From an uncultured Candidatus Saccharibacteria bacterium (lineage in GTDB: Bacteria; Patescibacteriota; Saccharimonadia; Saccharimonadales; JAGQNJ01), in the NCBI GenBank assembly GCA_965231045.1, contig OZ246406.1:386208-450207 (forward strand): DNA of 64,000 nt, given 5' to 3'. The notes beneath the pieces were generated by a model, which was not told the origin of the DNA, did not search any database, and worked only from the letters and a program-made list of their open reading frames with translations. Position numbers and translations under genes: made by a program. Shown piece after piece: positions 1,803-47,478 of the stretch (the stretch's first letter is position 1; each line of letters opens with the position of its first letter).

Positions 1803-3830
1803 CTAATTACCGATTATGTCAATGAAGGCATTCTCGTCAATCACCTTCGTTCCCAGCTTCTGGGCTTTAGCAACTTTACTGTTGCCAGGGTTTTCACCAA
1901 CCACCACATAAGTAGTGTCCTTACCTACACTTGATTGAAAAGTGCCACCAAGCGAGCGAATTTTTTCGGCAGCTTCTTCTCTCCCAAAGTTATCGAGCGT
2001 ACCTGTGATTACAAAACTGACTCCTGATAACTTCCCTCCAGTATGCGTTACTGATTTTGGTTTCACCCCATAATCTTCAAACTTTCCGAGAAGTTTTTGG
2101 TTTGAAGGCTCTGAAAACCATTCCACAATTGACTCAGCCACAACTTCACCTATACCTTCAACAGCACTTAATTCATCAATAGTTGCTTCTTGCAGTTTAT
2201 CCATAGACTTAAAGTTATTCGCCAGATCAATAGCTGTTTGTGAGCCAACATGACGAATTCCAAGCCCATAAATAAACCTAGCGAGTGGTGGGTTCTTTTT
2301 ATCGGCTATAGCATCGACAAGTTTTTGAGCTGAAACTTCAGCAAAGCGATCTAATCTCTCAACTTGTTCTTTTTTGAGTTTATAAATATCGGCTGTGTCT
2401 TTTATAAGTTCAGCTTGCTGTAAGGCAATCACATTTTTTTCGCCTAGACCTTCTATATCTAAGGCACCTTTACTGGCATAGTGCTCAATGCGCTTCCAAG
2501 ATCTTGATGGACAATGCTCATTAGGGCAACGCCAAACGGCTTCATCAGCTTTGTTTTTAACTAGCTTCGTATTACATTCTGGGCAATGCGAGGGCATTAC
2601 AAAAACTTTTTCCTTGCCAGTTCTAAGTTTTACTAGCGGCTCAACTATTTCAGGTATGATATCGCCGGCTTTATGAATAATTACGGTATCGCCAATCCGG
2701 ATGTCTTTGCGCTTAATTTCGCCCTCATTATGCAGGGTGGCCATTTGAACAGTACTGCCAGCCACAACTACAGGCTCTAGCATTGCGACAGGCGTAGCCG
2801 CACCTGTACGACCAATTGATACAAAAATGTCTTTGACCTTTGTGGTTGATTGCTCTGCAGGGTACTTATACGCTACAGCCGCCCTTGGTGCTTTGCCGAC
2901 AACTCCAAGCTCACGATAAACCTCTCGGTTATTTACTTTTACTACCAAGCCATCGGTATTAAAAGCCAGTTTATGGCGTTTCTCTTCCCATTCCTTAGCA
3001 AAATCTAACACATCCTTAGTTGAATGAAGTACGACCGCATCGTTATTTCTCAAAAAGCCAAGATCACTTATAACATCATAGGCAAATTTATGTGTTGGCA
3101 GCTCAGTTGGGTCGTTTCTGAGTAAATCGTAAGCTCTAAAGTGCAGTGGCCGTTCGGCGACTAGCTTTGGGTCAAGCTGACGAATTGTCCCGGCAGCCGT
3201 ATTACGAGGATTAGCAAATAATGCCTTGCCTTCAGCCTCGCGTCGTTTATTTAGCTTCTCAAAGTCTTTTTTGTACATTACAATTTCGCCACGAATTTCG
3301 GTGCGGCCCTCTAAAAACTTTACATGCTTGGCATTCTTGTTAAGCCTAAGAGGTACCGACTGAAGAGTTCGCACATTAAGTGTGACGTCTTCACCAACAA
3401 AACCATCACCACGAGTTACAGCGCGTTGCAGTAGTCCATTTTCATACACCAAAGCACAGGCAAAACCATCCATCTTTAGATCTACAAAATATTCTATCTT
3501 GGCCTTTGGAACCAACTTCTTTATTCGCACATCCCAAGCCTCGAGTTCGACCGCATCAAATACATCATTAAGACTAAGCATTCTCTCGGTGTGTTCAACT
3601 GATTTAAACTTAGCTGCGGGCGCACCTGCAACCCGCTGAGTTGGTGAGTCGGGTGTAATAAGCTCCGGGAATTGTTCTTCTAGTTGGGAAAGTTCATGCT
3701 TCAAACTATCAGCCGCGGCTTCGTCCATAATTGAACGGTCATTTACATGATATTCATAGCGATATTCGTTAATAAGCTCTCGAAGCTTTTCAATTCTTTT
3801 TTGGGCCTCGGATTTCGTTAAGGGCTTCAT
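1803..3830 (-). CDS. ligA: NAD-dependent DNA ligase
   Basis: 675 aa. Adenylation motif VDLKMDGFA, Zn-finger CPECNTKLV..CPNEHCP, HhH region and C-terminal BRCT-like tail. Confidence 0.95.
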   Translation of the reverse strand: MKPLTKSEAQKRIEKLRELINEYRYEYHVNDRSIMDEAAADSLKHELSQLEEQFPELITPDSPTQRVAGAPAAKFKSVEHTERMLSLNDVFDAVELEAWDVRIKKLVPKAKIEYFVDLKMDGFACALVYENGLLQRAVTRGDGFVGEDVTLNVRTLQSVPLRLNKNAKHVKFLEGRTEIRGEIVMYKKDFEKLNKRREAEGKALFANPRNTAAGTIRQLDPKLVAERPLHFRAYDLLRNDPTELPTHKFAYDVISDLGFLRNNDAVVLHSTKDVLDFAKEWEEKRHKLAFNTDGLVVKVNNREVYRELGVVGKAPRAAVAYKYPAEQSTTKVKDIFVSIGRTGAATPVAMLEPVVVAGSTVQMATLHNEGEIKRKDIRIGDTVIIHKAGDIIPEIVEPLVKLRTGKEKVFVMPSHCPECNTKLVKNKADEAVWRCPNEHCPSRSWKRIEHYASKGALDIEGLGEKNVIALQQAELIKDTADIYKLKKEQVERLDRFAEVSAQKLVDAIADKKNPPLARFIYGLGIRHVGSQTAIDLANNFKSMDKLQEATIDELSAVEGIGEVVAESIVEWFSEPSNQKLLGKFEDYGVKPKSVTHTGGKLSGVSFVITGTLDNFGREEAAEKIRSLGGTFQSSVGKDTTYVVVGENPGNSKVAKAQKLGTKVIDENAFIDIIGN

Positions 3831-7592: not shown

Positions 7593-7982
7593 CTATAAAA
7601 GTTTAAGAAGTTGTTTTGGAGTTTTTACAACTTTATCAATCAAACTATCACGGCAAGGATCCCCAGTAACTGGTGATAAGGCAAAAATTGGCTTGCCGAG
7701 TGCGGAAGCATAAGCCATCTCTAGCGTTACACTAACCCCAACATAATCATCTTTATTATAAACGTAGCAAACTTCACTTTTTCTAATCCAATCAAAGTGC
7801 TCTAGGGTTAAGCCCTTGAAAACTTTGCTGGTTATGTAGGGCGAACCAAGATCGGCGGTTTCCGGCAATGGCTCTTTGAAGCTCGGTTCAAAAACTAATA
7901 CGCCAGCTTTACTTAGCTCCTTACAGAAGGCATCGATTTGCTTGGCATATTTTTTTGAACCACACACAACTACCGATTTCAT
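7593..7982 (-). CDS. Nucleoside 2-deoxyribosyltransferase-like (Rossmann-like) small protein
   Basis: Likely start MKSVVVCGSKKY at 7982; the tracked extension to 8063 runs through a hairpin repeat. C-terminal EMAYASALGKPIFAL resembles NDT/YtoQ-type proteins. Weak call. Confidence 0.45.
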   Translation of the reverse strand: MKSVVVCGSKKYAKQIDAFCKELSKAGVLVFEPSFKEPLPETADLGSPYITSKVFKGLTLEHFDWIRKSEVCYVYNKDDYVGVSVTLEMAYASALGKPIFALSPVTGDPCRDSLIDKVVKTPKQLLKLL

Positions 7983-8007: not shown

Positions 8008-8035
8008 CCGTTTTGCGAGAGGATTCGCAAAACGG
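8008..8035. repeat. 28-nt perfect hairpin CCGTTTTGCGA-GAGGAT-TCGCAAAACGG (copy 1)
   Basis: 11-bp stem and 6-nt loop; identical to 13484..13511. Confidence 0.9.
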
Positions 8036-8050
8036 AACTGAGCAAAGCCG

Positions 8051-8102
8051 GCAAAAAAGACAAGAACTCAAATCAAAACATGGTTACGATTTGAGTTCTG
8101 TC
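8051..8102 (-). terminator. Intrinsic terminator downstream of tRNA-Cys
   Basis: About 15-bp stem (GACAGAACTCAAATC / GATTTGAGTTCTTGTC, one bulge) followed on the minus strand by TTTTTT. Confidence 0.7.
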
Positions 8103-8122
8103 CACAAAGCCGAGCTTTGCGA

Positions 8123-8196
8123 TGGAGGCGCGGACGAGATTCGCACTCGTGTACAAGGTTTTGCAGACCTTTGCCTAACTCCTCGGCCACCGCGCC
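8123..8196 (-). tRNA. tRNA-Cys(GCA), CCA encoded
   Basis: Acceptor GGCGCGG/CCGCGCC, anticodon arm AAGGT-CTGCAAA-ACCTT, short D arm typical of Cys. Confidence 0.9.
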
Positions 8197-8595: not shown

Positions 8596-11043
8596 CTAAT
8601 TTGTACTTCGATGGTGATAGTATCTCTTAATTAGTGCAGCAATACCAGTCACACCTAAAACTATCATACTGTTTGCAACCCAACTAACTACATTCAGGCT
8701 GTCACCAGTACTTGCTAGAGTTGATGACGATCCTGATGAAAAAACCGACAATGAGCTAACTGCAAGGCCTACTGGATCAACAATTGTGCCATTAGAAGCG
8801 TTATCCATGTCCAGTACACCGCCATCGGTAATACTGTAGGTTAGTTTAAGAGCATGCTTGCCATTAACCGTTGTTTCCGTAATTGTGGCACCGCTTATAT
8901 CCCCATAAGTTTGAGTATTCGAGTTATATTTGCGCGCTCTTACTTGTGATGGTGTAAGGTCAGTAATATAAGTAATCGAAACTTGGTTTGTAGTCCCTGT
9001 ACCGACTGTTATACAAAAGTTCATTAGACCCCATGGGTAATATAAACTGTCCTGTGTTGCCAAACTATTAGCCGCTATTGACGAAGAGCAAGTTATTGTT
9101 GTGCCATTTGGGGCTAATAAAGTAACGTCAGATACGCCAATTCCCGTATTTCCTGGGCTACTTTGCACCGTACTAGTTACAGGTGTGTAACTGAATTTTT
9201 GGATACGACTATTGCCACCATCAACTACATAAAAATTATATCCAGTCGAATCAATTAATATCCCCTTTGGTGTAACAAATTGCCCATCTCCGGTACCATT
9301 AGTCCCCCATTGGCCTAGATAGTTACCGTTACTATCAAATTTTTGGATACGGCTATTTAAGGAATCCGAAACATAAAGATTTCCGTTTGTTTTATCAAGA
9401 ACAATCTGCAAAGGAGTATTAAACTGTCCGTTGCCAGAACCCGCCGTGCCCCACTTGGTCAAATAGTTACCGCTACTATCAAATTTTTGAACACGGTTAT
9501 TACCGGCTTCTGTAACATATATATTACCGCTTAGATCTATCATTACTGACGATGGCTGATTAAACTGTCCGTTGCCAGAACCCGCCGTGCCAAACTTGCT
9601 AATAAAGGTGCCTGTATTACTAAACTTATCTATTCGGTTGTTGTTTATGTCAGGTATGTATATGTTGCCTGCAGCATCAACTCCAAGTGATGTTACATTA
9701 GTATTGAAGTTTACCTGACCGTCGGCAGAACCCGTACTTGTGTTAAATGAAAGCAAGAAGTTACCGTTTTTATCAAACTTTTGTACATGGTCGACACCAG
9801 GATCAGCAATGATAACATCACCGTTTGGATCGACTGCAAACGCCGTTGGCCTATTAAACATGCCGGTTCCACTTCCTGGGTATTCCCACTTAGATAAGTA
9901 ATTGCCGGAGCTATCGAACTTCTCAATACGGTGGTTGTCTGTATCAGCAACATAAATGTTTCCTGACGAATCAGAGGTAATTCCACGAGGCGTCACATTG
10001 AACTTCCCATCTGAGCTCACGCCAATGGTGTTTATTTTCATAATAAACGTTCCGCTATTGTTAAATTTTTGCATTCGAAAGTTGTTTGGATCAGCAATGT
10101 ACACATTACCAGAGCTGTCAGAAGTCATTCCACTATATGTGGCACTCATTGCAAACTGACCATCAGCCCCACCGCTAGACCCCCACTTGGTTATAAAGTT
10201 ACCGGAGCTATCGAACTTTTGAATACGACTATTGCCATACTCTGTCGTAAAGACATTACCATTTACATCGACAGCCAGCCCAGTTGCTGTACTAAATTGT
10301 CCATTCCCAGATCCACTTGTGCCCCATTTACGTACAAAGACTCCTGAACTAGTAAACTGCTGCACGCGGTTATTCGAGGTGTCCATTACATAAACATTAT
10401 CTGTTGACGAGTTATAGCCTATATCGCGTGGTGAGCTAAACTGCCCATCGGCCGAGCCGCTCGTGCCCCACTTTCTTATAAATACGCCCGTGCTACTAAA
10501 CTCTTGTATACGGTTGTTACCTGTGTCCGCAACAAAGACATTGTTACTTACATCGGTAATAATCCCCTTCGGCACACTAAACTGCCCATCGGCCGAGCCA
10601 CTTGTGCCCCACTTTGTAATAAACGTACCTGCTGTATTAAATTTCTGGATACGACTGTTGTTCATGTCCGTGACATAAATATTATCGCTGGAATCAATTG
10701 TTAGGCCGCGTGGTGCATTAAATTGGCCATTACCTGACCCAGTAGAACCCCACTGTGTTAAATAGTTACCCGAACTATCAAACTTATTGATACGGTTGTT
10801 GGTTACGTCTGTAAGATAGATGTTGCCGCTGGAATCCCGCCCAACACCCGTGACACCACCAAGGGTAGAGTTACCAAAGCTGCCCCATTTTGAAGCAAAG
10901 CTAGGAACGTCTGTTGGTGCAGCATGAACCGTTTGCCCAAGCACAAAGCTCGTAAGAAATATGCTCGCAAACAATAAAGAAAAAAATTGTAATCGTATTT
11001 TACCGGTTTTTTTACCAAATACTAGGCTAGACAGTTTCACCAC
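8596..11043 (-). CDS. Secreted 12x NHL-repeat surface protein with LAxTG-type cell-wall sorting signal
   Basis: Signal/TM N-terminus. Twelve repeats of about 47 aa (..NNRIQKFDSSGNY.TKWGTSGSGNGQF..). ITDGGVLDMDNASNGTIVDP domain. C-terminal LASTG plus hydrophobic stretch plus basic tail (KRYYHHRSTN). Confidence 0.85.
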   Translation of the reverse strand: MVKLSSLVFGKKTGKIRLQFFSLLFASIFLTSFVLGQTVHAAPTDVPSFASKWGSFGNSTLGGVTGVGRDSSGNIYLTDVTNNRINKFDSSGNYLTQWGSTGSGNGQFNAPRGLTIDSSDNIYVTDMNNSRIQKFNTAGTFITKWGTSGSADGQFSVPKGIITDVSNNVFVADTGNNRIQEFSSTGVFIRKWGTSGSADGQFSSPRDIGYNSSTDNVYVMDTSNNRVQQFTSSGVFVRKWGTSGSGNGQFSTATGLAVDVNGNVFTTEYGNSRIQKFDSSGNFITKWGSSGGADGQFAMSATYSGMTSDSSGNVYIADPNNFRMQKFNNSGTFIMKINTIGVSSDGKFNVTPRGITSDSSGNIYVADTDNHRIEKFDSSGNYLSKWEYPGSGTGMFNRPTAFAVDPNGDVIIADPGVDHVQKFDKNGNFLLSFNTSTGSADGQVNFNTNVTSLGVDAAGNIYIPDINNNRIDKFSNTGTFISKFGTAGSGNGQFNQPSSVMIDLSGNIYVTEAGNNRVQKFDSSGNYLTKWGTAGSGNGQFNTPLQIVLDKTNGNLYVSDSLNSRIQKFDSNGNYLGQWGTNGTGDGQFVTPKGILIDSTGYNFYVVDGGNSRIQKFSYTPVTSTVQSSPGNTGIGVSDVTLLAPNGTTITCSSSIAANSLATQDSLYYPWGLMNFCITVGTGTTNQVSITYITDLTPSQVRARKYNSNTQTYGDISGATITETTVNGKHALKLTYSITDGGVLDMDNASNGTIVDPVGLAVSSLSVFSSGSSSTLASTGDSLNVVSWVANSMIVLGVTGIAALIKRYYHHRSTN
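9171..10866 (-). repeat. Intragenic tandem NHL coding repeats (period about 140 nt)
   Basis: Near-identical DNA blocks, e.g. ttaaactgtccgttgccagaacccgccgtgcc at about 9421 and about 9559; ctaaactgcccatcggccgagcc at about 10441 and about 10576. Confidence 0.8.
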
Positions 11044-12283: not shown

Positions 12284-12398
12284 ATGGTATTGAGATAAAC
12301 CTACGGTTTTTCTCAACGCTCATCGGTTAAGCTGATCCTAACAAGTTAGGACAAGCTCGCTGCTCTTTTCCCTTTAAGTGGGTCCTGAACAGAGGGAA

Positions 12399-12427
12399 AT
12401 TATACCTGAGCACACTGTTTACTGCAA
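12399..12427 (-). promoter_or_regulatory. Sigma70-type promoter (TTGCAG-17-TATAAT) driving a long leader plus tRNA-Gly
   Basis: Minus strand -35 TTGCAG (12427..12422), 17-nt spacer, -10 TATAAT (12404..12399). Confidence 0.55.
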
Positions 12428-12474: not shown

Positions 12475-13458
12475 GTGCCAGATTTAGAACCAGAACGATA
12501 TACCCATGGCTGGGAATTACCCAAGCGAGATATATTTTTTGAGCCAGAAGTTACTGGCTTTTTACAGGCTGATGCAGACGATGCCTGGCTAGATGAGCTT
12601 GTGACAATGAATAACTTTTATCAAGATGTCCCCGAACCAGTCATTGATTTGACAGTTATTGATCTTAGGGATCATGTTTTGGCCCAAAGATTAGCCGACG
12701 AGAAAAATGTGCAAAGGGAACCTGTACTTGTAAATGTTGCCAGCTCAAATGGTATTAACAGTAATGACCGTCCAGAAAATCCCTTCCCTAAGCCAGAGCC
12801 TTCTAGCCATCAAGCAAATGTAAATATTGCCCAGACGATGTTCGGCAGCAATGCCGTAGCACCATCTGAAGGTGAGAAACTCGCCAAAGTATTACGGCCA
12901 CGTCAGCCATGGCCGGCCGAGCTTGAAGTCGACGAAGAGCCTATTGACTTATATGAAGACCCGGACGACGAGCCTGTTTTTCCCAATGTAATTGATGAGC
13001 CGCTAGAAACAGTTGTTGAAACAATCGACACCAGTGAGCCGGCCCAAAAGCAAAGCTTTTTACGCCGAGTTCTTAATCGAATTCCACGGCGCACTCCAAA
13101 AGTTGAAAAATTGCCAAATCCGCGCCGCAGAAAGATTGGCGCAACAGTTGCCGGGGTTGCCTTAGCAGCTACAGTTATTGGTGTCGGATTTAGTGCAAAT
13201 GTCCTGCATAATCCTTTGGCGAGTAACGAACAAGCAACTCCGAGTATCTCAACCACTGTAGTGACTCATGATACATACCGATCGCCTACAACCAGCGTTG
13301 TTGCCGAAAAGCGATTTATTATGCCGATAATGACCATGGAACAGAAAACAGCGTTTGACACAATGTGTCAGTGGATCCAAGACCACCCGAATGCCACACA
13401 AGAAGAATTCAATAGAACTGTAGCTTTTGCCGAGCTTGTTGCGCAGCAAAACTCATAG
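12475..13458 (+). CDS. Hypothetical acidic/proline-rich protein with one TM helix
   Basis: 327-aa ORF with GTG start (uncertain). TM IGATVAGVALAATVIGVGF preceded by the RRRK patch; no family recognised. Confidence 0.55.
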   Translation: MPDLEPERYTHGWELPKRDIFFEPEVTGFLQADADDAWLDELVTMNNFYQDVPEPVIDLTVIDLRDHVLAQRLADEKNVQREPVLVNVASSNGINSNDRPENPFPKPEPSSHQANVNIAQTMFGSNAVAPSEGEKLAKVLRPRQPWPAELEVDEEPIDLYEDPDDEPVFPNVIDEPLETVVETIDTSEPAQKQSFLRRVLNRIPRRTPKVEKLPNPRRRKIGATVAGVALAATVIGVGFSANVLHNPLASNEQATPSISTTVVTHDTYRSPTTSVVAEKRFIMPIMTMEQKTAFDTMCQWIQDHPNATQEEFNRTVAFAELVAQQNS

Positions 13459-13483: not shown

Positions 13484-13511
13484 CCGTTTTGCGAGAGGAT
13501 TCGCAAAACGG
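13484..13511. repeat. 28-nt perfect hairpin CCGTTTTGCGA-GAGGAT-TCGCAAAACGG (copy 2)
   Basis: Identical to 8008..8035. Followed on the minus strand by TTTCTTTAT. Confidence 0.9.
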
Positions 13512-13520
13512 AAGAGGAAG

Positions 13521-13577
13521 ACAAACAAAAGACCCTGCTTGATTTTGGCTACTTGTTCGCCGAAATTAAAGCAGGGT
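13521..13577 (-). terminator. Intrinsic terminator downstream of tRNA-Phe
   Basis: About 18-bp hairpin (ACCCTGCTT..GATTTTGGC / GCCGAAATT..AAGCAGGGT, one bulge), followed on the minus strand by CTTTTGTTTG. Confidence 0.7.
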
Positions 13578-13594
13578 TGGTGTTGTGTCTGACG

Positions 13595-13670
13595 TGGTGG
13601 CTCCTCCCAGACTCGAACTGGGGACACAAGGCTCTTCAGGCCTCTGCTCTACCAACTGAGCTAAAGAGCC
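13595..13670 (-). tRNA. tRNA-Phe(GAA), CCA encoded
   Basis: Acceptor GGCTCTT/AGGAGCC, anticodon arm GAGGC-CTGAAGA-GCCTT, T arm CCCAG-TTCGAGT-CTGGG. Confidence 0.9.
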
Positions 13671-13753
13671 ACGCTAGATTTAGATTATTAAGTTGTTGTC
13701 AGAAGAGCCAGTGTCCCCGGGGGACTAATATTCTCTGCTTTGCTACGCAATAA

Positions 13754-15066: not shown

Positions 15067-15153
15067 TGGTGCGGACGAGAGGACTTGAACCTCCACAGGA
15101 TTGCTCCCACTACCCCCTCAAGGTAGCGCGTCTACCAATTCCGCCACGTCCGC
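15067..15153 (-). tRNA. tRNA-Leu(GAG), CCA encoded
   Basis: Acceptor GCGGACG/CGTCCGC, anticodon arm CTACC-TTGAGGG-GGTAG, long variable arm, T arm GGAGG-TTCAAGT-CCTCT. Confidence 0.9.
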
Positions 15154-15169
15154 ATAAACTAAGTTATAA

Positions 15170-15194
15170 AGGTTCAAGTCCTGGCTTGGCCACC
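15170..15194 (+). other. Orphan tRNA 3'-end-like fragment (T loop plus acceptor 3' strand)
   Basis: AGG-TTCAAGT-CCTGG-CTTGGCC-A-CC on the + strand, with no matching 5' half. Confidence 0.35.
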
Positions 15195-15273
15195 TTCGGC
15201 AGCCCCGAAACTTCATCTTTGCAAACAAGTTTGCAAGAGAAGGTTTCCTTGCGAATTGCCACTGGCTATTCTC

Positions 15274-15341: not shown

Positions 15342-15387
15342 GGTATAACCATTATATCCTACAGATTACAGAGTTAAAATCAAGACT

Positions 15388-45099: not shown

Positions 45100-45176
45100 T
45101 TTTCCTCACTTCTTAGAAACAGAGGTAAAGTATACGCTTTTTTATGGCTATTGCAATACTTGCTTTTATGCGGCGA

Positions 45177-45203
45177 ATTCCAGCGCTAGATGCTTCTTCT
45201 TTG
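45177..45203. repeat. Direct repeat copy A (displaced alaS 3'-end fragment)
   Basis: 27 nt identical to 45336..45362. Read on the minus strand it continues as ..KEEASSAGIRRIKAS.., mimicking the AlaRS C-terminus. Confidence 0.85.
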
Positions 45204-45255
45204 CACTTGCTTTCGAAATAAATTCGAATCCGCTTTACAGCGGACCGCTCACTTC

Positions 45256-45283
45256 CCCCAAGTTGAATCCTCTCAACTTGGGG
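45256..45283. repeat. 28-nt perfect hairpin CCCCAAGTTGA-GAGGAT-TCAACTTGGGG (as read on the minus strand)
   Basis: 11-bp stem and 6-nt loop. Same GA-GAGGAT-TC apex as the 8008 and 13484 hairpins, but with an entirely different, fully compensated stem. Confidence 0.85.
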
Positions 45284-45307: not shown

Positions 45308-47287
45308 CTACTTGAGTACAGCCTTTATTCTACGTATTCCAGCGCTAGATGCTTCTTCTTTGACAATATGGAAGCGCTTGCCATCTTCGGCGAGTTGGCC
45401 GGTACGATCAACATGTGGCCCCCCACAAATTTCATAACTAAATGGCTTGTCGTCTTTTTTGCCTTGCATACGGTAGATTTTGATCACGTCACCATAGCGA
45501 TCACCAAAATGTCCCAGTGGTTTGAGTTTCTCCAGAGCGTATTTCTTAGGGTGCTCTTCAAATGTTACTGTCAGATCTTTATCGATCTGTTCGTTGACCA
45601 TATCTTCAACTTTTTGGAGTTGCTCAGCTGTAACCTTTTCTGGATGGCTAAAATCAAAACGTAGACGTTCTTCGGTAATATTTGAGCCGTGTTGAACGAC
45701 ATGATCGCCCAATGTTCGGCGCAAACTTTCATACATCAAATGCGTAGCGGTGTGGTACTTCTTGTGAATATCTTTTTGGCCGCCCAAACCGCCCTTGAAA
45801 GTTCCTTTGCTGGCAGTTTGCGAACGAGTTCTCTGTTCAATCATTTCGAAATCAAAATCTTTTTTCCAGTTCTTATCGATACTGATGTTTTGTATGGCTG
45901 CTTCTTCTAGACTGAGCTCTGGTGGAAAGCCAAAAGTATCGTATAGCTTGAATATATCTTTTCCCGTAAGCAGCGGCCCTTGCTCCATGGTGTAAAACTC
46001 TTTTGAAGAAGACGTTACCTTGGCAGCTTCCATTTTTTCTGAAACTTGGCCATCTTTTTTCCACCCAAGCTTATCTAGTTTATTAAATTCTCGGAGTCCC
46101 TTTCGTAGTGTTTGGCGGAAGGTTTTTTCTTCTTTAACTAGTGTTTCGATAATCTCAGCCTTGTTTTTTTCGACTTCTGGAAAGTCTTTTTCATATAGTT
46201 CGGCAATAACCGGCACTACATCCTGCAAGAAATTCTGCTCAATACCCAGGTCAAAGGCGAAGCGAATAGCCCGTCGAAGTAGTCGGCGCATCACGTAACC
46301 TTGCTCTTTGTTGCTTGGTTTTACACCATCAACGGCTAGGAAAGTTGCCCCGCGTAAGTGATCAGCAATTACCCGCATGCTGTTGGTGTGGCTCTCATAA
46401 GTTTTGCCACTTAGTTTTTCTAAGCTTTCGATAATTGGCCAAAGTACACTGATCTTAAAAACATCCGGGCTATCAATAGCTGCCGCCGCAATTCGTTCCA
46501 AACCGCCGCCAAAATCGATATTTGGCTTTTCCAACTCTTCGAAGCCTTTGTCGGTTCGACGATATTGCATGAATACTTGATTACCGATTTCCATAAATCG
46601 CCCCGAGTCACTTGCAGGATGAGGCTTACCATAACCTTCGGCATGATTCTGTTCACCAAAATCATAAAATACTTCACTATCCGGGCCACAGGGATCGCCT
46701 ATAGGAGTTTTATTGAGTCCACCACCACGACTCCACCAGTTCTCACCATCATCATAAAAGAAAATTCGCTCGCCAGGCTTTATCCCCCGCTTATCACCAT
46801 CGGCTTGAGAGCCAATCTCTACAATCTTGGCATCAATACCCTTTTTCTTGAATTGTTCTTGCCAAATTTTGGCCGCTTCATCATCACGTGGGATGCCGTG
46901 TGACTTATCACCAATAAAACAACTGACATAAAGTTTGTTTGGATCAAGTCCAACTATCTCTGTTAAATATTCAAAAAACCAGGCAATTTGTTCTTTTTTG
47001 AAGTAGTCACCCATGCTCCAGTTACCAAGCATTTCGAAGAAAGTCGTGTGGCGATTATCGCCAACGTCTTCGATATCCATGGCTCGAATACAGGTTTGGC
47101 TATCTGCCAGTCGAATACCGTCAGGGTGTTTTTCGCCAAGTAAGTAGCGAATTAATGGCTGCATACCACTACCTGTAAACAAGGTAGTTGGATCGTTATC
47201 GGGCACCAAAAGAGCACGCGGGATAATTACGTGGTCGCGTTTTTTGAAGAATTCTAAATAAGCATTGCGAATATCTTGTGCATTCAT
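45308..47287 (-). CDS. alaS: Alanine--tRNA ligase (short form, no C-Ala domain)
   Basis: 659 aa. Class II catalytic core, editing-domain H..H / CGG.H motifs (HTATHLM, ICGGPHV). Ends just after GIRRIKAV. Confidence 0.95.
   Translation of the reverse strand: MNAQDIRNAYLEFFKKRDHVIIPRALLVPDNDPTTLFTGSGMQPLIRYLLGEKHPDGIRLADSQTCIRAMDIEDVGDNRHTTFFEMLGNWSMGDYFKKEQIAWFFEYLTEIVGLDPNKLYVSCFIGDKSHGIPRDDEAAKIWQEQFKKKGIDAKIVEIGSQADGDKRGIKPGERIFFYDDGENWWSRGGGLNKTPIGDPCGPDSEVFYDFGEQNHAEGYGKPHPASDSGRFMEIGNQVFMQYRRTDKGFEELEKPNIDFGGGLERIAAAAIDSPDVFKISVLWPIIESLEKLSGKTYESHTNSMRVIADHLRGATFLAVDGVKPSNKEQGYVMRRLLRRAIRFAFDLGIEQNFLQDVVPVIAELYEKDFPEVEKNKAEIIETLVKEEKTFRQTLRKGLREFNKLDKLGWKKDGQVSEKMEAAKVTSSSKEFYTMEQGPLLTGKDIFKLYDTFGFPPELSLEEAAIQNISIDKNWKKDFDFEMIEQRTRSQTASKGTFKGGLGGQKDIHKKYHTATHLMYESLRRTLGDHVVQHGSNITEERLRFDFSHPEKVTAEQLQKVEDMVNEQIDKDLTVTFEEHPKKYALEKLKPLGHFGDRYGDVIKIYRMQGKKDDKPFSYEICGGPHVDRTGQLAEDGKRFHIVKEEASSAGIRRIKAVLK
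45336..45362. repeat. Direct repeat copy B (inside alaS 3' coding end)
   Basis: 27 nt identical to 45177..45203. Confidence 0.85.
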
Positions 47288-47377: not shown

Positions 47378-47478
47378 AAAATATAAAGAGTGCGGGGAGA
47401 GATCTAGCTTGTTGATCCGCCGGCAACCTAGCGAAAGCTAAGGTGCTCCATCTAGCCCATTGTTGGGAAAGATATTGG
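47378..47478 (+). promoter_or_regulatory. Candidate SAM-I-class riboswitch aptamer
   Basis: J1/2 AAGAG; P2 GCGG..CCGC with GGAGA/UUGAU k-turn-like bulges; P3 GGCAACC/GGUGCU capped by UAGC-GAAA-GCUA; CUAG/CUAG pseudoknot option; P4 CCCA-UUGU-UGGG; J4/1 AAA; P1 AAUAU/AUAUU. Confidence 0.6.

Follow-up and report, generated by a model that had tools for sequence, protein, structure and literature searches.

Why should the same perfectly paired hairpin stand beside two different tRNA genes within one short stretch of a bacterial genome? The stretch is a segment of 64,000 nucleotides from an uncultured Candidatus Saccharibacteria bacterium (contig OZ246406.1, positions 386,208 to 450,207; hereafter the window), in which an earlier note, made from the sequence alone, had reported an identical 28-nt hairpin at two loci. 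The 28-mer CCGTTTTGCGAGAGGATTCGCAAAACGG indeed has exactly two matches on the plus strand of the window, at 8008-8035 and 13484-13511, and is absent from all 100 shuffled sequences. The identity of these direct copies, which are spaced 5476 bp apart, extends over 30 nt including the following AA and ends there (repeat family D14). Our analysis shows that the hairpin is a conserved structured element attached to tRNA operons. Going beyond the earlier note, we find that it forms one half of a two-hairpin unit, that this unit is also found as a putative 5' leader of tRNAs in related genomes, and that the window holds a third copy with a different stem. The parts of the unit in the window are as follows:

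8008..8035, plus strand: hairpin 1, copy 1, with an 11-bp stem (CCGTTTTGCGA/TCGCAAAACGG) and the loop GAGGAT (covariance model, 50 bits)
8042..8120, no strand assigned: hairpin 2 of copy 1, a long hairpin with its core at 8063-8099, spanning the distance from hairpin 1 to the tRNA-Cys 3' end
8123..8196, minus strand: tRNA-Cys (GCA), touched at its 3' end by the two-hairpin unit
13484..13511, plus strand: hairpin 1, copy 2, of the same sequence as copy 1 (covariance model, 59 bits)
13512..13521, plus strand: purine-rich linker AAGAGGAAGA (family consensus GAAGAGGAG)
13516..13593, no strand assigned: hairpin 2 of copy 2, a long hairpin with its core at 13531-13578, stopping 1 nt short of the tRNA-Phe 3' end
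13595..13670, minus strand: tRNA-Phe (GAA), touched at its 3' end by the unit
45214..45244, minus strand: small terminator-like hairpin TCCGCT-GTAA-AGCGGA with a T-rich tail, as read from the sequence
45256..45283, minus strand: third copy, hairpin 1 of 'type 2', CCCCAAGTTGA-GAGGAT-TCAACTTGGGG (40.9 bits)

On the minus strand, the order described in the earlier note (tRNA-Cys or tRNA-Phe, a T-tailed hairpin, a spacer and then the 28-mer) is present at both loci; the spacer of 'about 20 nt' has approximately that length at the Phe locus and is approximately 27 nt long at the Cys locus. Read on this strand, copy 1 lies beyond tRNA-Cys and hairpin 2, which ends in a T-rich tail (TGTCTTTTTTGCC) and resembles a terminator of tRNA-Cys; 25 nt downstream of copy 1 follows the ATG (7982) of the open reading frame (ORF) 7593..7982. 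Copy 2 is located 25 nt past the stop codon of the plus-strand ORF 12475..13458; on the minus strand it stands beyond the tRNA-Phe terminator and is followed by the tail TTTCTTTATA. Its hairpin 2 is A-rich in the 5' flank and T-rich in the 3' flank and looks like a bidirectional terminator, and it has no sequence relation to the hairpin 2 that adjoins copy 1. Folding of the whole copy-2 unit (13484-13594) gives -54.1 kcal/mol on the plus strand and -43.2 kcal/mol on the minus strand.

The third copy was found by scanning the window for any 11-bp stem around GAGGAT. Its stem is perfect and unrelated in sequence to that of copies 1 and 2; it is preceded by GGGGT, followed by GAAGTGAG and placed 24 nt past the alaS stop codon on the alaS sense strand, with the small terminator-like hairpin 11 nt further on, in the slot that hairpin 2 occupies elsewhere. 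In two of the three window copies (copies 2 and 3) the hairpin thus stands on the GAGGAU-sense strand, 24-25 nt after a stop codon and directly before a terminator. The window contains only 22 GAGGAT/ATCCTC hexamers, of which three lie within perfect 11-bp stems, and a covariance-model scan at full sensitivity and without filters returned exactly three sites (59, 50 and 41 bits), the next, unrelated one scoring 11 bits.

Scans of public genomes and metagenomes yielded approximately 45 further copies, mostly in Saccharibacteria assemblies. The pattern of the genome scan, CGTTTTGCGA-N6-TCGCAAAACG, fixed 10 bp of each arm and left the loop unspecified, and that of the metagenome scan, TTGCGAGAGGATTCGCAA, fixed the loop and the inner 6 bp and left the outer 5 bp free; only the loop in the former and the outer 5 bp in the latter are therefore free of search bias. 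Type-2 and L028b copies came from a loop-only scan. Among the 22 contigs matched in the genome scan, 14 belong to the hairpin family, labelled as 11 Saccharibacteria/Saccharimonadales metagenome-assembled genomes (MAGs), one Patescibacteria group, one Binatia and one Dehalococcoidia. Judging by their flanks, the Binatia-labelled (L011) and Dehalococcoidia-labelled (L019) contigs are probably mis-binned Saccharibacteria; L011 is identical to the metagenome contigs L052 and L064. The unspecified loop reads GAGGAT in 12 of the 14, TAGGAT in one and GGGGAT in one, with identical orientation to the flanks in all. The remaining matches are unrelated perfect palindromes with the same 10-bp arms and other centres (AACGTT, TAGCTA), namely a multi-copy repeat of a Dinghuibacter MAG (L002, L004, L005, L014, L017, L018, L021, L022), a long palindrome that sits at contig ends and probably breaks the assembly, and a Mycobacterium pair (L007, L008). 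The metagenome scan returned 51 contigs, of which approximately 37 are real. The earlier note had allowed that the motif might be confined to its two sites or be the product of a collapsed or duplicated contig; many relatives carry it, and its recurrence in independent assemblies, together with the empty shuffles, rules out both chance and an assembly artefact.

Comparison of 48 distinct sequences revealed strong covariation in the stem: 98.9% of the cells are paired, all 11 pairs have changed on both sides, and none of 500 shuffles matched this. Compensated variants of the outer stem in the metagenomes include CCGTTTT/AAAACGG, CAATTTT/AAAATTG, CAAATTT/AAATTTG, CCGATTT/AAATCGG, CCGCTTT/AAAGCGG and CAATCTT/AAGATTG, and even the two copies on the single contig L028 differ by compensated changes. 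Type-2 stems, again preceded by GGGGT, occur in L020 and L045/L048 with a wholly different sequence and the same 11 bp and loop, and L020 and L045 carry tandem hairpins with this loop. The stem is 11 bp in all members. As the pairs change while stem length, loop and purine-rich 3' flank are kept, the constraint falls on these features and not on the arm sequence. The compensatory changes preserve the helix, as in a structured RNA motif. A symmetric protein-binding DNA palindrome could mimic this pattern, a reading disfavoured because the arms differ completely within one genome. The earlier note's view that the hairpin is not just a terminator is also supported, since the loop is kept while the stem covaries and the family has no consistent U-tract.

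The hairpin family appears to be previously uncatalogued. With Rfam 15, only tRNAs and the SAM riboswitch exceeded the gathering threshold in the window, nothing was found over the hairpins at E values up to 10, and none of 20 related loci gave a match, so that a known RNA family was rejected; our literature searches found no description of the motif. Viral contigs contained no match, even with a relaxed 18-base pattern, and a phage or viral attachment site was rejected on this ground. A small ORF was likewise rejected, as ORFs running across the hairpins have unrelated flanks, and NTG codons after the Shine-Dalgarno (SD)-like linker open no conserved reading frame (that of L028 stops after three codons).

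The variable arms also bear on a dif-like Xer site, with the 5.5-kb segment between the direct copies as an element integrated at dif. The hairpin has the length (28 bp) and the 11-6-11 geometry of such a site, and the window provides two direct copies 5476 bp apart. We nevertheless consider this reading effectively refuted, with a vanishingly small chance of being correct: the cumulative GC skew falls monotonically across 8-13.5 kb without a switch, and three copies occur within 64 kb, with several on individual contigs elsewhere. Furthermore, variable arms around a constant centre are the reverse of the behaviour of dif, and we know of no resemblance between the 28-mer and the dif consensus. 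The segment between the copies carries no recombinase; it contains tRNA-Cys and tRNA-Gly, which belong to a tRNA cluster conserved in relatives.

In the GAGGAT sense, the complete unit consists of hairpin 1, the purine-rich linker and the long irregular hairpin 2, often with a CUUG-type apex, whose base lies at the end of a tRNA gene. Although tRNA linkage was part of no search pattern, approximately 40 of about 44 evaluable copies adjoin a tRNA gene or tRNA fragment, and more than 15 different tRNA species are flanked. Two mirror arrangements occur. In arrangement A, represented by 16 copies including both window 28-mers, hairpin and tRNA are on opposite strands, with 73-89 nt between the hairpin and the tRNA 3' end; in arrangement B, with 12 copies, they share a strand and the tRNA 5' end is 74-90 nt away, one extra copy being only 10 nt from the tRNA and without hairpin 2. 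At eight further loci the unit is followed, at 82-90 nt, by an exact 13-25-nt copy of a tRNA end, with the full gene 213-448 nt further on. Whichever side of the tRNA it lies on, the unit is without exception directed at the tRNA end, and both arrangements coexist within one genome. In L015 and L044 they meet, in the order tRNA, hairpin 2, hairpin 1 (AUCCUC sense), GTA, leader-type hairpin, AGAGGAG, hairpin 2 and next tRNA; the leader-type hairpin of these loci and of L026 keeps the outer stem (CAATTTTG...CAAAATTG) and AGAGGAG and has a larger loop of other sequence. Homology of hairpin 2 across arrangements A and B was rejected, as profile hidden Markov model searches in both directions gave nothing significant; all that they have in common is the CUUG-type apex and the terminal ...GACG. 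The idea that the hairpin-2 apex (ACUUGA) pairs with the T-loop (UCAAGU) was also rejected, since the apex does not track the T-loop of the adjacent tRNA (UUCGAAU in L028).

Such a distribution invites a mobile explanation, in which the unit or hairpin 1 alone is a non-autonomous mobile element or recombination site copied to tRNA gene ends and recognised as a single-stranded or cruciform DNA hairpin with an adjacent motif, for instance by an HUH enzyme or a tyrosine recombinase. HUH recognition sites combine a hairpin with a conserved neighbouring motif, like the GAGGAU hairpin, and 11-6-11 is the geometry of a tyrosine-recombinase core site. An approach to tRNA ends from both sides would be expected if the near-palindromic acceptor stem were the target, and the diversity of adjoining tRNA species (more than 15), the identity of the two window copies (30 of 30 nt) and the exchange of partners within the same tRNA cluster in relatives (Leu(gag) in L010, Val in L044, Phe in the window) point the same way, as does the nature of the loci, which are hot spots of recombination: tRNA fragments have been displaced, 80-450 nt inserted and, in L019, 281-bp units repeated in tandem. 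Against it, the stem covaries locus by locus, even on one contig (L028), which argues for long-term selection on each copy, and the arms of type 1 and type 2 differ wholly within one genome, which makes an arm-binding recombinase unlikely. The window copies have nothing in common beyond 30 nt, and neither terminal inverted repeats nor target duplications came to light. Hairpin 1 and ...GACG, the two ends of the unit, do not form an inverted repeat, so that the features of a miniature inverted-repeat transposable element are missing. None of ten neighbouring ORFs tested matches an integrase, transposase, recombinase or replication-protein family; the matches found were NHL-repeat, RibD_C, MazG and dCache. 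The viral contigs are free of the motif, and the fixed distance to the promoter in the leader arrangement fits an integrated function. Taken together, we regard a mobile or recombination-associated DNA element as unlikely. Two more specific candidates were discarded: a rolling-circle nick site (CTTGAT) in the hairpin-2 apex is a chance resemblance, the apex being better described as a CUUG tetraloop, and an integron attC site would have R''/R' core sites and a cassette array, neither of which is present.

The earlier note had suggested three identities for the hairpin, of which a protein-binding hairpin stays the most plausible. A REP-like (repetitive extragenic palindromic) element is disfavoured along with the end of a miniature mobile element, as the copies number three per 64 kb and keep a fixed distance to tRNA ends instead of being scattered; REP elements have GTAG at the hairpin foot and a cognate RAYT (Y1 HUH) transposase in the genome; GTAG is absent here, and the ten neighbouring ORFs include no transposase match. 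The lack of inverted repeats and target duplications, the mere 30 nt shared and the lack of a transposase or recombinase gene nearby speak against the mobile-element end.

The loci themselves are unusually fluid, with displaced tRNA fragments and small conserved insertions, and several observations can be recorded in their own right. In the window, the 5' 42 nt of tRNA-Phe are duplicated upstream of the intact gene with an 81-nt insert (13754-13795 copies 13631-13672), and so are approximately 66 nt of the 5' part of tRNA-Leu(gag), with an insert of about 118 nt (15274-15341 copies 15089-15154). Each pair stands behind a single predicted promoter (TTGAGT-17-TAGAAT at 13833-13805; a TATAAT at about 15348-15353, the latter read from the sequence), and Rfam scores 13722-13793 as a weak tRNA (21 bits). 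Insertions of 80-450 nt split or duplicate tRNA genes in the window (15155-15273, minus strand), in L034 (1553-1870) and in L030, L003, L038, L039 and L006, with recurrent insertion points behind the D-stem or behind T54 in the T-loop (GGT|). Conserved structured motifs are common to the insertions. One reads GAGA-[hairpin ...CC-WGUG-GG...]-UCGCAAGGGAAYCUUC...GAAGUUCNGGGGUCGCGGAACGUGACC, often with a UUGCAAA-CUUG-UUUGCAA hairpin; another, GCGCAGGAA-N-UUCCGAGCA, is also found in the 16S leader of L047. The insertions have no Rfam match and may represent a small tRNA-targeting element or a spacer RNA family. L019 contains, at 2950-3652, at least three tandem units of about 281 bp, each with a 19-nt tRNA-Leu(tag) 3' fragment, hairpin 2, hairpin 1 (GGGGAT) and approximately 130 nt. 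The coding sequence of alaS (minus strand, 45308..47287) has its final 42 nt in duplicate, at 45162-45203 and 45321-45362, 159 bp apart and on either side of the type-2 hairpin with its terminator; the copies are 88% identical and both translate to KEEASSAGIRRIKA. The picture is that of an alaS 3' end of foreign origin which, together with its 3' untranslated region (UTR), supplanted the resident end and left the old one behind. A SAM riboswitch (RF00162, 49.6 bits) lies at 47378-47478 on the plus strand, just past the start of minus-strand alaS, and 8596..11043 on the minus strand encodes an 815-aa secreted NHL-repeat beta-propeller protein, in a gene with nine internal repeats of about 141-144 bp (family D1).

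Support for transcription of the unit comes from arrangement B. In at least eight of its loci a predicted TTGACW-17-TAWAAT promoter lies in front of hairpin 1, ending 27-32 nt before it, which makes the unit the predicted 5' leader of the tRNA transcript. The consensus structure of hairpin 2 in this arrangement contains 30 G-U pairs versus one A-C pair, an excess which indicates folding as RNA in the GAGGAU sense. In most leader-type copies AGGAG or GGAGG, the core of an SD sequence, is found in the linker, and the 16S rRNA 3' end in L047 reads GGAUUACCUCCUUUCU / ...ACCUCCUUUCU. For the segment after hairpin 1, the GAGGAU strand gives the more stable fold in 18 of 22 arrangement-A units and 13 of 17 leader-type units. 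The frequent apex A-CUUGA-U of arrangement A forms a CUUG-type loop on the GAGGAU strand only, the leader-type apex likewise has its CUUG sense on this strand, and the wobble pairs of hairpin 1 favour this strand 3 to 1 by our own count, which is too few to decide. Two further observations concern promoters and leaders in general. A signature of a -10 box (TATAAT, TATACT or TAAAAT), 4-6 nt and (C)CTCTGTT precedes tRNAs and at least one protein gene in many loci (window about 12392-12410 and about 45122-45135, both on the minus strand; L027, L029, L033, L038, L051, L053, L061, L062, L026). The tRNA-Gly(gcc) leader in the window (12284-12400, minus strand) resembles a degenerate leader-type unit without the GAGGAU hairpin, having a TATAAT-CCCTCTGTT start, a linker-like tract AAAAGAGCAGCGAGC and a UCCUAA-CUUG-UUAGGA hairpin.

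In arrangement A, hairpin 2 has an A-rich 5' flank and a T-rich 3' flank, which together with a near-balance of G-U and A-C pairs would fit a bidirectional terminator shared with the tRNA. The proximity of hairpin 1 to this structure raises the possibility that it is an auxiliary terminator or insulator, a second stem-loop which backs up the tRNA terminator or blocks read-in without specific recognition. Tandem terminators are common after stable-RNA genes, hairpin 1 stands directly beyond the terminator-like hairpin 2 in the window arrangement, and the 13484 copy was called terminator-like on the minus strand, with the tail TTTCTTTATA. This is the only window 28-mer with a U-tract, as the 8008 copy has no T-tract; on the tRNA strand, the first ten positions past hairpin 1 contain approximately three T on average over 23 arrangement-A loci (our own count), and the tail on the other strand is purine-rich. 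A plain terminator is free in loop and stem length and needs neither the invariant loop nor the invariant 11 bp seen across the family, and in the leader arrangement, where the hairpin lies between promoter and tRNA, termination would be counter-productive. We therefore judge a purely auxiliary role distinctly unlikely.

Alternatively, the hairpin might supply a promoter or operator for the next transcription unit, TTGCGA in the 5' arm of the tRNA strand acting as the -35 box, loop and 3' arm as a 17-nt spacer before the -10 box, and, in one variant, the palindrome as the operator of a dimeric regulator. The sum 6 + 11 = 17 would account for the fixed geometry. Of 23 arrangement-A loci, 7 have a -10-like hexamer (A2, T6, at least 4 of 6) at a distance of 17-19 nt past TTGCGA, versus 0 of 13 leader-type loci, the chance expectation being roughly estimated at 7-12% per locus; examples are TAAAAT in L010, 33 nt before the next tRNA, and TACAAT in L044. 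Both window copies, in contrast, lack a -10 box (GGAAGT, TTTCTT), the promoter scan is empty there, and a convergent gene ends in front of copy 2. Leader-type and type-2 copies do not fit, the type-2 arms being without TTGCGA, and a promoter has no need of a palindrome. This makes the proposal very improbable.

We tentatively favour, at less than even confidence, the reading that the hairpin is a structured RNA element of tRNA-locus transcripts which is recognised through its loop and 3' flank in the GAGGAU sense. Loop and 3' purine tract, one helical turn apart, would lie on the same face, and a factor acting in trans, either a protein or the CCUCC tail of 16S rRNA, could bind them jointly. 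The unit might thereby mark or stabilise a non-coding segment of transcripts that end at a tRNA boundary, or take part in their processing. In the leader arrangement, a sigma-70-type promoter would transcribe the unit and RNase P would free it from the tRNA. In the window arrangement, in which RNA rather than DNA would again be the active form, the unit, which points at the tRNA 3' end and has an apparently bidirectional terminator in common with the tRNA, would constitute the 3' end of convergent transcripts (the mRNA of ORF 12475..13458 for copy 2 and the alaS mRNA for copy 3).

Several observations weigh against this RNA model, the main weakness being the lack of a source of GAGGAU-sense transcript at most arrangement-A loci. 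Most of these have a tRNA-strand gene or tRNA on the hairpin-1 side, as copy 1 does, and therefore no upstream gene supplies such a transcript; no consistent promoter for the GAGGAU sense was found at arrangement-A loci, where the evidence for transcription in this sense is positional only (the 3' UTR placement of copies 2 and 3). At copy 1 (8008) the beginning of ORF 7593..7982 lies antisense to the GAGGAU strand and promoter prediction is negative, and units between two co-oriented tRNAs (L035, L006, L010, L015) are probably transcribed in the opposite, AUCCUC sense. Furthermore, G-U and A-C pairs are nearly balanced in arrangement-A hairpin 2 (26 versus 18), and the asymmetry in folding energy may partly stem from a composition richer in G than in C. 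Some leader-type hairpins have other, larger loops, and therefore the GAGGAU loop is not indispensable for the leader. Finally, no protein emerged as a candidate for binding. Neither the E. coli nor the B. subtilis CsrA sequence had a tblastn match in the window and approximately 0.5 Mb of loci, a small sample.

Two kinds of factor suggest themselves by resemblance only, a CsrA/Rsm-type protein reading the GGA at hexaloop positions 3-5, or a contact of the 5'-stabiliser type with the 16S tail, the linkers containing AGGAG or GAAAGGAGG. csrA has been reported as expressed in ultra-small groundwater prokaryotes (PMC9938205). A bolder version, which we rate as a long shot, treats hairpin and purine tract as a binding module for a global RNA regulator (CsrA-like or an analogue) or for the 30S anti-SD tail, the transcripts becoming dispersed decoys. 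If so, tRNA leaders, tRNA-locus trailers and some mRNA 3' ends (alaS) would be regulatory decoys, and tRNA-operon transcription would be coupled to post-transcriptional control in minimal-genome symbionts. As a variant idea, GAGGAU loops of mRNA 3' ends could kiss AUCCUC loops of tRNA read-through transcripts. Mimicry of a tRNA T-arm or minihelix, and of the sarcin-ricin loop (common CGAGAGGA), was rejected, since the similarity is not kept in type-2 copies.

In Saccharibacteria and other Patescibacteria, with their tiny genomes, non-coding RNA and transcript processing are almost unstudied. Three features are unusual: the constant loop of a stem whose length is fixed and whose sequence is free, the mirror arrangements directed at tRNA ends, and the occurrence in a lineage of little-known RNA biology. 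The hairpin thus offers a testable handle on how Saccharibacteria organise, process or regulate tRNA transcripts; it exposes the fluidity of their tRNA loci and, if a protein reads the loop, would provide the bait sequence for that protein.

Known systems share individual traits with the unit. CsrA/RsmE hairpins present GGA in a hexaloop (ACGGAU in hcnA; RUACARGGAUGU from in vitro selection), with a second GGA 10-63 nt away. The GAGGAU hexaloop likewise has GGA at positions 3-5 and U at position 6, and a second GGA is present in the linker AGAGGAG approximately 19 nt downstream at window copy 2 and most leader-type copies; the tandem hairpins of L020 and L045 are a further likeness. Unlike in those sites, it is absent or degenerate at copy 1 (GAACTGAGC) and about half of the window-type copies (GAAGAGCAG, GAAAAGCGT), and the 11-bp stem is far longer than in typical CsrA sites. 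The 5' mRNA stabilisers of Gram-positive bacteria combine a 5'-proximal stem-loop with the SD-like STAB-SD GAAAGGAGG (B. thuringiensis cryIIIA). Similarly, the hairpin of the leader arrangement begins approximately 20-25 nt away from where transcription is predicted to start, and behind it comes AAGAGGAG or GAAAGGAGG, a complement of the 16S tail CCUCCUUUC; in contrast to the stabilisers, it precedes a tRNA and not an mRNA, the window copies lie outside a 5' leader, and the invariant loop is foreign to known stabilisers. Hairpins of the lambda nut boxB type (loops GAAGA or GAAAA, 5-bp stem) and of rrn leader antitermination are comparable as promoter-proximal hairpins, with a purine-rich loop (GAGGA) and a stable-RNA leader here, and a boxA-like CGTCCTTAACAAA is near in L028, L041 and L046. 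The stem, however, has 11 bp versus 5 bp, most loci are without boxA, and the downstream mirror arrangement has no counterpart.

Among dispersed repeats, REP elements and bacterial interspersed mosaic elements, Correia elements and Rickettsia palindromic elements are also short intergenic palindromes, several per genome, often beside terminators and sometimes in head-to-head pairs, as in L015 and L044. The GAGGAU hairpins differ by perfect stems, low copy number and strict linkage and polarity to tRNA ends, and by conserving the loop instead of the stem or a 5' GTAG, the stem covarying within a contig. Transcribed spacers of tRNA operons with functions of their own are exemplified in E. coli by the small RNA sponge 3'ETS-leuZ and by the rtT RNA of the tyrT operon, whose 178-bp repeats carry a 19-nt tRNA 3' fragment and which has an Rfam family (RtT). 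Like these, the unit is a non-coding structured sequence joined to tRNA genes and freed or freeable by tRNA processing, and the tandem repeat of L019 also carries a 19-nt tRNA 3' fragment. Unlike them, it has no sequence or Rfam relation to either and is dispersed over many tRNA species and genomes, with an invariant loop, a fixed 11-bp stem and two mirror arrangements.

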